A stretch of 53,217 bases of DNA from assembly GCA_039815375.1 (NCBI GenBank), contig JBCBZJ010000020.1, forward strand, positions 1 to 53,217, read 5' to 3'. The translations under genes and the position numbers were made by a program. The stretch comes from Verrucomicrobiota bacterium. GTDB taxonomy: Bacteria; Verrucomicrobiota; Verrucomicrobiia; Opitutales; Coraliomargaritaceae. Below, piece by piece: positions 1 through 29,800 of the stretch (position 1 is the stretch's first letter; every line of letters starts with the position of its first letter). The notes beneath the pieces were generated by a model. The model ran no database searches. It saw nothing but the letters and a program-made list of their open reading frames with translations, and was not told the DNA's origin.

Positions 1-374
1 AAAAAAGAAGACTCTCTACATTGCGGAAGAGAGCCTTGAAAGTGGCAAACCTGTAGGGACTTGTTCCGAGGTGCGAAGCACCGACAAGACCGGTCCGGCA
101 ACCGCCGGAACCGGAACACCGCAGGTGAAAAGCCCGGGGATGCTCTAAAGAAGATAAAAAAGAAGACTCTCTACATTGCGGAAGAGAGCCTTGAAAGTGG
201 CAAACCTGTAGGGACTTGTTCCGAGGTGCGAAGCACCGACAAGACCGGTCCGGCCACCGCCGGAACCGGAACACCGCAGGTGAAAGGCCCGGGGATGCTC
301 TAAAGAATAATAAAAAAGAAGACTCCCTTCATTTCGAAAGAGAGCCTTGAAAGTGGCACACCTGTAGGGACTTG
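1..374. repeat. Tandem 155-bp repeats (1-155, 156-311, partial 312-374) downstream of tRNA-Arg; each has a copy of the tRNA 3' end, a terminator and a 55-bp palindromic element
   Basis: Near-identical direct repeats with period 155; TGGCA(A/C)ACCTGTAGGGACTTG is shared with the tRNA 3' end; the array runs off the window edge. Confidence 0.95.
312..348 (-). terminator. Intrinsic terminator of tRNA-Arg (repeated in each tandem unit)
   Basis: Minus strand AAGGCTCTCT-loop-AGGGAGTCTT followed by CTTTTTT. Confidence 0.75.
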
Positions 375-430
375 AACCCCAAACCTCCTGATTCGTAGTC
401 AGGCGCTCTATCCAATTGAGCTACAGGTGC
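354..430 (-). tRNA. tRNA-Arg(ACG)
   Basis: Reverse complement GCACCTGTAGCTCAATTGGATAGAGC-GCCTGA CT ACG AA TCAGG...GGTTCAAGTCC...GCCA; folds as a cloverleaf with encoded CCA. Confidence 0.97.
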
Positions 431-501
431 ATTTTGGAAAGGCGGGATAAAGACAAAGCCTCTGCCTTGAATCAAGCAATAGTTTTATAAAAGTTACGAG
501 G

Positions 502-861
502 CTAGAAGGGGCGCACATAAACCATGCTTGCAGCAACAAAACCTAGACCAATGAGTATCCACCAAAATCTCTTGGCATAATCCGGCTTGCGATTGATCAA
601 CGCGATCAAGCCGCCGAGAGCTATCCAGATCACGAGCTTCACCAGAATCCAAGGTGTGGCAAAGCTATAGCCAATTTTTGAAATAAGAGCAAAACCGGCA
701 ACAAGCATGAGCAGCAGACCAATACCACTGGTGATCGAACCGAGTTTTTTCACGTCGACGTCGCCGCTTCCGATCATACTGCGGGCTAATAGGGCTCCAT
801 AGCCCAAAAAGAGCATCATCATGCCGGTTAAATGAAGAATATGATAAATGTATATTGGCAT
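502..861 (-). CDS. Small 4-TM membrane protein (SirB/YchQ-like)
   Basis: 119 aa; YHILHL N-terminal motif, four hydrophobic helices, W..VKL motif. Confidence 0.65.
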   Translation of the reverse strand: MPIYIYHILHLTGMMMLFLGYGALLARSMIGSGDVDVKKLGSITSGIGLLLMLVAGFALISKIGYSFATPWILVKLVIWIALGGLIALINRKPDYAKRFWWILIGLGFVAASMVYVRPF

Positions 862-890
862 CTCGGAGAGCTGAAAAAGTCATCTTAAAC

Positions 891-1087
891 CCGAACTATG
901 CAAACGGATTTTTTGAACAATAGGTTTATCTTTGTAAGTGCCTTTGAATCAGATACATTTCTAATGTGTCGCATTAAAATGTGCTCACCAGAATGGTGTT
1001 TTCAAATTGTTCCGGTTCCGGCCGCGGCCGGACCGGTCTTGTCGCTTCGCTCGGAACTTAGGCGACCAAGCCACATGGCTGCCTATC
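891..1087 (+). repeat. ~200-bp dispersed element, copy A (contains 49-bp palindromic core 1009-1057)
   Basis: Aligns end to end with the reverse complement of 29602-29800 and partly with 10757-10872. Confidence 0.85.
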
Positions 1088-27488: not shown

Positions 27489-27489
27489 A

Positions 27490-28767
27490 ATGAATTCAGA
27501 AGAAAGGCGCCAGAAAATTGCAGTCGTCGGCTGTGGTGTCGCTGGACTCACTGCGGCATGGCTACTCAGCCGGAAACACGAGGTTCATCTTTTCGAAAAA
27601 AACGACTACGCAGGCGGACATACCCGGACGCTTCGTATCGCCGATGGACCCGATAAAAATTTGCCTGTGGATACCGGCTTCATCGTCATGAATCACCGGA
27701 ACTATCCTCTGTTCACTGAGGTTCTGAAGCAGCTCGGCGTGGAACTGGCCGACAGTTCCATGACTTTCAGCTTTCATGACAGGTCTTCAGGATACGGCTA
27801 CTCCGGCAACTCACTTGGCACCCTGTTCCCAAGTCCCGCTTACTTCTTCAAACCTTCACATCTAAGCTTAGTCCGCGATCTTTGGCGTTTTGCACGTATC
27901 GGCTACGCAGATCTCAACTCGGGCTATCTCGAGAGTATGACTCTTGGCGAGTATTTCCAATCACGCCGCTTCGGGAAGAACTTCCTCGAAAACTACTTCT
28001 ACCCCATGGGAGCAGCGATCTGGTCTTCTCCTATTGAGCAGATGCAGCAATTTCCCGCTCAACCCTATATTCACTTTCTGGAGAACCACGGACTTCTCAG
28101 GCTGACAAATCGACCACAATGGAGATACGTCAAAGGAGGAAGTCGGACCTACGTGGAAGCAATGCTGAAGCAGTTCGAGAATACACCGAATCTTAATGAA
28201 GCCCCTCAGGGCATCGAGAGGACTGAGGCAGGGGTAAGACTCACAACTCAAAGCGGTGAGACTCTTGACTTCGACCAGATCGTAATCGGAGCACATGCCG
28301 ATGAAGCGCTGCAACTGCTTCGCGACCCCGACAAAGATGAGCAGGCCAACCTTTCGCCCTGGTATTATCAACCAAACGAAGTCGTCCTCCACACCAGTCT
28401 GACTCATCTGCCACCGGAAGAAAAGTTATGGTCCTCCTGGAATTTCATCCGGGAACCGGGAGACGGGGAAGAACGACCCGTGCTTGTGAGCTACTATATG
28501 AATCGCCTCCAGAATTTGGAAACGAGAGAGAACTACGTCGTCACCCTAAATGCAGGCAAGGCCATTCCAGAGAACAAAGTCATCAACCGAACCACCCTGA
28601 CCCACCCTCTCTATTCACAGGAAGCACTCGCGTCACAATCTCGCTTACGCAAAGCAAATGGCCGGAGAAACACCTGGTTCTGTGGCAGCTATTTCGGATA
28701 TGGCTTTCACGAAGACGCCGTGCGCTCTGCCGTCGAGGTTGCGCAAGGCTTCGGCATCGAACTGTGA
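27490..28767 (+). CDS. FAD-dependent oxidoreductase (COG2907; UfaD-like)
   Basis: IAVVGCGVAGL, VDTGFIV.N..NYP, PMGAAIWS, GSYFGYGFHED. Confidence 0.9.
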   Translation: MNSEERRQKIAVVGCGVAGLTAAWLLSRKHEVHLFEKNDYAGGHTRTLRIADGPDKNLPVDTGFIVMNHRNYPLFTEVLKQLGVELADSSMTFSFHDRSSGYGYSGNSLGTLFPSPAYFFKPSHLSLVRDLWRFARIGYADLNSGYLESMTLGEYFQSRRFGKNFLENYFYPMGAAIWSSPIEQMQQFPAQPYIHFLENHGLLRLTNRPQWRYVKGGSRTYVEAMLKQFENTPNLNEAPQGIERTEAGVRLTTQSGETLDFDQIVIGAHADEALQLLRDPDKDEQANLSPWYYQPNEVVLHTSLTHLPPEEKLWSSWNFIREPGDGEERPVLVSYYMNRLQNLETRENYVVTLNAGKAIPENKVINRTTLTHPLYSQEALASQSRLRKANGRRNTWFCGSYFGYGFHEDAVRSAVEVAQGFGIEL

Positions 28768-29561
28768 CCGGGCGTTCCAAAATCTACCGCGGAGAAGTCA
28801 CCCACCAGCGTATGGGGCCTGTCAAACACGCCTTCACCTATCCGATGAGCTTTTTCGGATTCGATTTAGAAGAGCTCGATAGCATCGAGAAAAAGACCAG
28901 TCTCTTCGGGCATAATCAGAGCCGACCTCTGCGGCTCAATGACAGCGACTATCTGAGAGGCAAAAGCACTGATATCCTCGAGCAACTTTCCGAGTTTCTG
29001 CCACAGGAGAAGCCCGGCCAGTCCACCTTGCTGATCAGCTCGCCGCGCTACTTCAACTATGCATTCAATCCGGTGAACTTCCATCTCCGCATGGAAGGTG
29101 AAGACCTGCTTTGTGCCGTCGCAGAAGTTAACAATACCTTCGGCGACCGCCATATTTATGCCCTGAACGAACTCAAACATGAAGGTGGTTCGAAATGGTC
29201 GGCACACTGCCCGAAGGATTTTCATGTCTCTCCTTTTAACGACGTGGCGGGTGAATATCACTTCACTTTTCGAATCAAAGAGGAGGAGATTTTCCTGGGT
29301 GTAGACCTTTGGAAGCATGGCGAATGTGTCATGAAAACATGGATACACGGCAAAGGCATACCTCTTAGCAATCAAGCCATCATCCGCTACGCACTACTCC
29401 ATCCTTTTGACACCGCATTGAATAGTATGCCACGAATCCTCTGGCAGGCAGCAGTGCTTTATTTTAGCAAGAAGATGGAGGTCTTTAAACGACCAAGCCC
29501 GAAATCAAAGCGAACGGTCATTGATCGAGACCAGCCTACCAACGATCAAAAAATTATTTAA
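28764..29561 (+). CDS. DUF1365 family protein (UfaO-like)
   Basis: GTG start overlapping the upstream TGA; H.R..P..H.F.Y, PR..NY.FNPV, EVNNTFGDRH.Y, K.FHVSPF. Confidence 0.88.
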   Translation: MTGRSKIYRGEVTHQRMGPVKHAFTYPMSFFGFDLEELDSIEKKTSLFGHNQSRPLRLNDSDYLRGKSTDILEQLSEFLPQEKPGQSTLLISSPRYFNYAFNPVNFHLRMEGEDLLCAVAEVNNTFGDRHIYALNELKHEGGSKWSAHCPKDFHVSPFNDVAGEYHFTFRIKEEEIFLGVDLWKHGECVMKTWIHGKGIPLSNQAIIRYALLHPFDTALNSMPRILWQAAVLYFSKKMEVFKRPSPKSKRTVIDRDQPTNDQKII

Positions 29562-29601
29562 TGCTCAGCTTGCTCAACTTTAAACCTGAATTATGCAACA
29601 G

Positions 29602-29800
29602 GATAGGCAGCGATGTGCGCTTCTCGCCTAAGTTCCGAACGAAGCGACAAGACCAGTCCGGCCGCCGCCGGAACCGGAACAATTCGAAAACACTATTTGG
29701 GTGAACACATTTCTGATGCTTTGCATTAGGAATGTGGCTTATAAAAAAGCACTTACCTCACTCGATATCATGTTTTTGAAGTTCGTTTGCATCGTTTCGG
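29602..29800 (-). repeat. ~200-bp dispersed element, copy B (core 29632-29680)
   Basis: Reverse complement aligns with 891-1087. Confidence 0.85.

Follow-up and report, generated by a model that had tools for sequence, protein, structure and literature searches.

A two-hairpin mini-element that replaces two target bases and recurs at tRNA genes in Coraliomargaritaceae

The 53,217 nucleotides of contig JBCBZJ010000020.1 analysed here (hereafter the window, meaning that whole stretch), from a Verrucomicrobiota bacterium of the family Coraliomargaritaceae, contain short sequences running from GTTCCG to CGGAAC, some of which interrupt pieces of transfer RNA (tRNA) genes. The locus raises the question of whether these sequences, termed the mini-element, are mobile, by what rule they enter their targets, and how tRNA genes withstand them. 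A first-pass annotation had described five copies of a non-autonomous mobile mini-element that takes the place of GA and prefers tRNA loops. All five are real, with the coordinates and strands it gave (Table 1): a covariance model built from 32 copies has exactly five matches within the window, and the element motif, which occurs five times there, occurred 0 times in 100 first-order Markov simulations. The GTTCCG...CGGAAC ends are present in 5/5 window copies. These copies represent only three insertion contexts, however, because copies 3 and 5 are passengers of a miniature inverted-repeat transposable element (MITE), while copies 1 and 2 belong to a tandem repeat whose unit measures 155 bp. 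The loss of GA at the tRNA-Arg T-loop copy and at the tRNA-Ser D-loop copy was confirmed. As for the ACCGC that follows the Arg copies and had been read as tRNA, ACC does match the tRNA, but the remainder is a tail hairpin. The annotation had also left out a target-tailored inverted arm and a rescue duplication, which are described below. The tRNA-Ser insert is spanned with zero differences by a contig from a public run, which is possibly the source sample.

Table 1. Mini-element copies and associated features in the window (TIR, terminal inverted repeat).
Feature	Position	Strand	Remark
Displaced tRNA-Arg 3' fragment, unit 1 (T-loop to CCA)	43..62	-	
Mini-element copy 1, 55 bp	63..117	+	replaces GA of antisense T-loop in displaced tRNA-Arg 3' fragment
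Tail of unit 1	118..135	+	ACC-GCA-GGT mini-hairpin, then GA, then inverted T-arm copy
Displaced tRNA-Arg 3' fragment, unit 2	198..217	-	
Mini-element copy 2, 55 bp	218..272	+	second unit of 155-bp tandem repeat
Tail of unit 2	273..290	+	layout as in unit 1 tail
tRNA-Arg terminator-like hairpin	319..348	-	diverged copies within both repeat units
Intact tRNA-Arg(ACG)	354..430	-	empty GA site at 374-375
283-bp TIR-bounded MITE-like repeat	888..1170	-	carrier of copy 3
Mini-element copy 3, 49 bp	1009..1057	-	MITE passenger
Intact tRNA-Ser(CGA)	25467..25556	-	empty D-loop GA site at 25535-25536
Tail after copy 4	25600..25622	-	9 target bases + 6-bp snap-back hairpin
Mini-element copy 4, 55 bp	25623..25677	-	replaces D-loop GA of displaced tRNA-Ser 5' fragment
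Displaced tRNA-Ser 5' fragment	25678..25698	-	
Internally deleted MITE-like repeat	29583..29802	+	carrier of copy 5
Mini-element copy 5, 49 bp	29632..29680	+	MITE passenger

The genome-wide search that the annotation had proposed returned many copies beyond the window. In the host genome (3.56 Mb, 66 contigs), nhmmer at E<0.01 detected 20 copies, against one match, at E 0.007, when the genome was reversed; the covariance model at E<=0.05 detected 27. From all sources, 102 full copies were collected, of which 4 were mis-bounded and dropped, and the remaining 98 were grouped into 59 flank contexts. The base directly after the element is A in 59/59 contexts, and the junctions read G/TT on the left and C/A(G) on the right, with one base lost. 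Given a nearby duplicate of the left flank exists in 24 contexts, an empty copy could be read beside the filled one: it is GAA in 20, GAA in one more after a one-base offset, and uninformative in 3.

Empty alleles were found at four kinds of site, namely a phage gene, tandem repeats, a tRNA array and a MITE. The phage gene is the cleanest case: the filled allele encodes 156 amino acids and its close relatives 140, the proteins are otherwise 98% identical, and in the DNA alignment GA is exchanged for the element with no other addition. Next comes a G in this case, matching the nearest empty allele. Given that this empty allele is near-identical, recent insertion is shown. The empty alleles of the tandem repeats (L084, L191) agree with the same junctions. 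In the MITE, where 13/20 nhmmer copies occupy one position of a ~285-bp repeat bounded by TIRs, empty relatives measure 236-240 bp and filled ones 279-285 bp, and the pair replaced is GG. Flank tabulation and the comparison of empty with filled sites thus uphold the GA target proposed by the annotation, except at the MITE copies. Because GG rather than GA is replaced there, the rule is that two bases of G-R-R (mostly GAA) are replaced, the G being kept and the next purine lost, with zero target duplication. The mini-element is very probably a mobile, two-base-replacing element, and the non-autonomous mobility proposed for it is supported by these empty alleles.

The preference for tRNA loops is real as well, and tRNA T-loops are an insertion hotspot. 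A gene for tRNA or transfer-messenger RNA (tmRNA) lies within 350 bp in 19/59 contexts and near 17/84 contexts of a separate metagenome set, for which the search pattern required the following A; such genes hold 151 of the 153,793 GAA sites in the host genome (0.1%). A head-on bias of the tRNA targets (10/14, against 25/48 tRNAs genome-wide) was considered and dropped.

At single-copy tRNA genes, the element is part of a larger unit. Read along the element strand, this begins with the displaced gene end, the element, a few target bases and a small loop, and continues with an inverted copy of the target bases, GA, the inverted left flank, a spacer, and the gene end with its GA intact. The inverted arm carries TC changed to GA. 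A downstream repeat of the left flank is present in 17/19 tRNA contexts versus 7/40 others, and the arm fits its own tRNA over other tRNAs (76 versus 58.9 +/- 3.5, permutation p 5e-5; 12 of the 15 antisense contexts were parseable). At L019 even the stem bases track the target, and the D-loop cases show a mirrored layout at the tRNA 5' end. Among congeners, a full copy is present in 0/4 tRNA-Arg(ACG) loci, one of which has a likely remnant and another a different insert family, and the unit is present in 0/7 tRNA-Ser(CGA) loci. As the T-loop is a known integrase crossover region, and the displaced 3' fragments begin there, the units might be attL/attR scars of integrative elements, with the short repeat as an unrelated decayed remnant. 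This explanation is highly improbable: the element is also found inserted precisely in genes other than those for tRNA, the empty alleles largely refute it, 5' D-loop duplications exist, and the arms are tailored to many tRNAs.

What happens when the target is dispensable can be seen on a different contig of the host genome, in an array of redundant tRNAs. The element sits there in a T-loop without arm or duplication, and putting the GA back yields a twelfth tRNA call. The same array in a relative has a second copy, in a neighbouring tRNA-Leu, whose site is empty in the host genome. Because the redundant array holds a plain T-loop insert with neither arm nor duplication, T-loop targeting is intrinsic, as judged from three inserts spread over two copies of a single array; by the same inserts, the duplication is likely the mark of an insertion that an essential gene withstood. 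We regard the rescue model, in which the unit restores a functional gene, as probable. The array (contig C40, 54655-56468; L343) is an accessory one of 11-12 tRNAs, common to two other genera, some of its tRNAs being decayed.

This architecture has a known, unexplained counterpart in the RtT repeats of E. coli tyrT/tyrV (rttR, RtT RNA; NC_000913.3). Both have a duplicated tRNA 3' end, a cluster of GNA-loop hairpins at the T-loop GA and an inverted T-arm copy with TC changed to GA, and the mini-element unit thus shows all three traits of the RtT layout, mirror-imaged. The differences are that the mini-element lies on the antisense strand and comes first, that it loses one target base and also stands alone at many non-tRNA sites, and that no sequence is shared: the element covariance model has zero matches at the E. 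coli locus, and there is no Rfam RtT match. The mode of action of rttR is called unknown in 10.1101/2024.07.17.603846, and no established mechanism for the origin of such tRNA-linked repeats, or of in-frame palindromic inserts, was found in the literature searched. A second insert family with the E. coli RtT polarity, which occupies the sense T-loop and is accompanied by a duplication of the tRNA 3' end, was observed in four tRNAs of the host genome (tRNA-Ser GGA, Pro GGG, His and Pro TGG, on contigs C10, C11, C31 and C52). This sense-strand family also occurs at L303, L103 and L320, the last being a 5' version at tRNA-Ser(CGA), and the mini-element also nests inside its units.

It is conceivable, although we would not rely on it, that the mini-element is the first sharply delimited member of a new class of minimal single-strand "branch" elements that replace two bases instead of duplicating a target and, through their own insertion chemistry, rebuild essential RNA genes by micro tandem-inversion duplication. 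If true, the E. coli tyrT/RtT repeats, together with similar inserts tailored to tRNAs elsewhere in bacteria and in archaea, would find their explanation in this class, and an insertion enzyme that uses a 50-base donor would await discovery. The present family supplies exact ends, filled and empty alleles, and a junction rule fitting no transposase class tested, together with a natural control in the plain inserts of spare tRNAs versus the rescued inserts of essential ones. Should its enzyme be found, a donor of 50 bases whose insertion causes no duplication would make a compact insertion tool.

The element itself is gene-less and consists of two hairpins within 41-60 bp. In the alignment of 32 copies, the scaffold order is GTTCCGAG, hairpin 1, GACAAGA, CCGG, hairpin 2, CCGG, ANC, the first two of these motifs being fixed by the search patterns, so that their invariance is partly built in and counts for less in the reading of the mechanism given below. 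The two hairpins are free to differ in length and sequence from copy to copy, but their pairing is kept; the CCGG/CCGG stem is paired in 98% of cells, and 2/32 rows show a compensatory pair. The 102 copies end in GGACC (63), GGAAC (36) or GGATC (3), and since only 36/102 end in GGAAC, the 6-bp terminal inverted repeat held to be a family trait is a subfamily trait, broken in the other 66. The loop of hairpin 1 is a GNA triloop in 33/59 contexts, against 1 for the complement strand. DNA accommodates GNA triloops, like tandem GA pairs, as stable structures, which points to one folded DNA strand. Folding energy differs little between strands (-9.9 versus -9.4 kcal/mol); the energy model is not known to include a bonus for GNA loops or sheared GA pairs. 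Homogeneity of the hairpins within genomes was not significant (p 0.49 and 0.07).

With regard to distribution, copy number ranges from 1 to 27 per genome. The core pattern was detected in 52/84 genomes of the host family, where the control gave one hit in all, and in 0/16 other families of the order; a second tally gave 14/21 family genomes versus 1/279 other Verrucomicrobiota. These counts include kin and are hence non-independent. Three small-genome genera have the element in 0/17 genomes. The full element occurs in named records titled Coraliomargaritaceae, Coraliomargarita, Thalassobacterium, Puniceicoccaceae, Opitutales or Opitutaceae, while loose-pattern matches outside Opitutia mostly have no second hairpin and were taken as chance. 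A BLAST comparison with a phage collection gave zero matches. Nor did the element match a family already described, the outcome that would have undone the annotation's proposal: there is no Rfam match, and no prior description was found in the openly readable literature searched.

How such an element moves is a more tentative matter. The reading that we favour, while granting it somewhat less than an even chance, is that the element, which carries no gene and inserts throughout the family, travels as a folded single strand of DNA with the help of an enzyme acting in trans, most likely a Y1/HUH transposase resembling the REP-associated tyrosine transposases (RAYTs) of repetitive extragenic palindromes (REPs). 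The target strand would be nicked 3' of the G, the element would be joined to, or copied from, that 3' end, and the new end would rejoin one base on, so that one target base is lost and the element protrudes as a branch, with a bulge of 2 bases facing it. Were the target dispensable, the event would then be complete. In a single-copy tRNA or tmRNA gene only rescued inserts would survive, because the plain event would be lethal. In survivors, the new end would extend a few bases into the target, fold back and copy its own flank, skipping the branch and leaving GA opposite, and would then switch back and re-copy the gene end, resulting in insert, inverted arm and intact gene. Later drift and selection would shape the GNA loops and amplify the unit in tandem.

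Candidate enzyme genes in the host genome amount to three Y1 hits, three IntI-like genes and a single IS110 fragment; RVT_1 (reverse transcriptase) gave no match there. In favour of Y1, its genes and REP-like palindromes both number among the insertion targets. Across genomes, Y1 genes were found in 46/52 carriers versus 10/32 non-carriers, the best of three candidates; IntI-like genes in 31/52 versus 9/32; and reverse transcriptases in 26/52 versus 7/32. The specific assignment to Y1/HUH is at best provisional, and a number of results weigh against it. All three co-occurrences are confounded by genome streamlining and kinship. Genus g16 has the element in 4/4 genomes (1-3 copies) with no Y1, IntI or reverse transcriptase match, and genome G006 has 44 Y1 hits and zero elements. 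HUH chemistry loses no target base. The RAYT or IS200-like transposase flanked by the element that the annotation had suggested looking for was not seen at any of the host Y1 loci (0/3), no other enzyme gene is flanked by the element, and 2/29 further Y1 loci have a copy several hundred bases off. No bias to the lagging-strand template was detected (28 versus 18, p 0.18; a hand count, minus MITE passengers and two ambiguous regions). A circle or excision junction was absent from the contigs of five runs, although contig data prove nothing on this point. Finally, cleavage by the TnpA-REP enzymes studied takes place at CT or CA, adjacent to a GTAG tag (PMC8266576).

Neighbour scans of 116 and 81 open reading frames showed no recurrent enzyme, and neither these scans nor 31 interrupted or variant loci held an autonomous parent with the same ends. 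Among known sources, an origin of the mini-element from IS200/IS605, which inserts 3' of a constant tetra- or pentanucleotide and loses no target base, was rejected on the variable upstream bases, the one base lost and the missing lagging-strand bias. IS91 was rejected for an unfit junction and the lack of a Y2 match in the host genome, by a profile that had no control match. For IS110, the one gene in the host genome is at a contig end with no element adjoining, and two metagenome loci beside IS110 genes resemble nested insertions.

The annotation had stated that no cognate enzyme lies in the window. The window does contain an integron integrase gene (51437-52825, minus strand; 462 amino acids; TIGR02249 at 333 bits against a cut-off of 265) with a long N-terminal extension, yet nothing links it to the element; the gene and its two paralogues are all near contig ends. 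It is relevant to an alternative in which a tyrosine recombinase (XerC/D or an IntI-like integrase) takes a single-stranded circle in folded form as its substrate, in the manner of attC or of CTX-phage attP, which integrates as a folded single strand. The tailored unit would then be the donor site, with crossover at G^TT, and plain inserts would be deletion products between short repeated target bases. The tRNA unit does read exactly as an integration product (junction G^TT / AA^C), tandem units recur, and besides this above-cut-off integrase there is the IntI co-occurrence given above. We nevertheless judge the alternative unlikely: it leaves the origin of each tRNA's first tailored donor unexplained, the phage and tRNA-array inserts have neither arm nor duplication, 21/52 carriers have no IntI-like match, and the host integrases have ordinary sites of their own. 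No fewer than 11 such attC-like sites are dispersed over contigs C2, C4, C5, C12, C28, C30 and C33, all belonging to a single family distinct from the element. The mini-element is not itself an attC site, given its core order is GTT...AAC, not AAC...GTT, and its contexts are not cassettes.

A reverse transcriptase of the group II intron type is a further alternative, suggested by copies at four or more distinct sites in or beside group II intron RNA, and in an intron reverse transcriptase gene. It would copy element RNA at a nick by target priming, staggered cuts deleting the base and snap-back making the arm; target deletion (R2) and snap-back are both behaviours of reverse transcriptases. 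The introns are possibly just tolerant, mobile carriers, however, and the host genome has no RVT_1 match despite its roughly 25 copies, just 26/52 carriers have one, transcribed targets are hit on both strands, and the loops are of the DNA-type GNA. We rate this alternative as improbable.

That E. coli shows the same layout, which suggests a universal machinery, and that carriers such as g16 have no candidate enzyme, could also mean that no dedicated enzyme exists. A stable hairpin oligonucleotide would then be caught at purine loops that lie exposed, through nick repair or by a topoisomerase or ligase of the host, with gene conversion spreading it. We hold out little expectation of this, as ends that stay base-precise in over 100 contexts, and an element all but confined to one family, fit a specific partner, and several distinct insert families share one genome.

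The mini-element comes close to REPs and REPINs with their RAYT in being non-coding, structured on one strand, lineage-restricted and probably moved in trans, and it often sits inside REP-like palindromes. It differs from them in having no GTAG/CGTC tag (alignment of 32 copies), no CT/CA junction and only 1-27 copies per genome, and in not flanking a Y1 gene. MITEs are also short and non-autonomous, and the window copies have 6-bp inverted ends; yet the family has no conserved inverted ends (66/102 broken) and no target duplication, and is itself a MITE passenger. The REP/MITE-like label of the annotation is therefore not retained. Rickettsia palindromic elements and in-frame REP insertions, as described in PMC3733652, are similarly short palindromic inserts in frame in working genes. 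The mini-element is shorter and has a fixed two-hairpin scaffold, a two-base replacement and the tRNA rescue layout, and its sequence has no match in four text supplements of PMC3733652.

Apart from tRNA genes, the targets include REP-like palindromes, short tandem repeats, group II introns, Y1 transposase genes and protein genes, and the element hitch-hikes in three of these kinds of carrier, namely group II introns, REP-like units and a MITE. Reading frame is preserved by the net gain in 36/59 contexts, and in 9/9 contexts within long open reading frames, the latter including a PolX-type gene, glycosyltransferases and a molybdopterin oxidoreductase. The phage gene is a further protein host, and purL, named by inspection of its protein, carries the element in two genomes. 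The element adds loops of 14-18 residues to working proteins.

A number of minor observations accompany these results. The carrier MITE-like repeat of window 888-1170 and 29583-29802, bounded by TIRs and 237 bp long, is present in 22/100 family genomes; a target duplication is not evident for it, and a search for its parent found none. IS982 was rejected as the parent of the carrier MITE, a candidate suggested by its end sequence, given no PF13612 match exists in the host genome and no long TIR-bounded copy in 30 loci. By eye, the element lies within Y1 transposase genes at L366 and L381, once in the HUH-motif codons, and at L054 it seems to break the end of a transposase gene, presumably of ISL3 type. 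A subfamily with an AT-rich second hairpin (L006, L116, L270, L284, L360) recurs in short AACGTCG-type repeats across genera. At L107, L187, L192 and L199, a third insert of 29 bp is nested in the element at CC^GG, with CC repeated.

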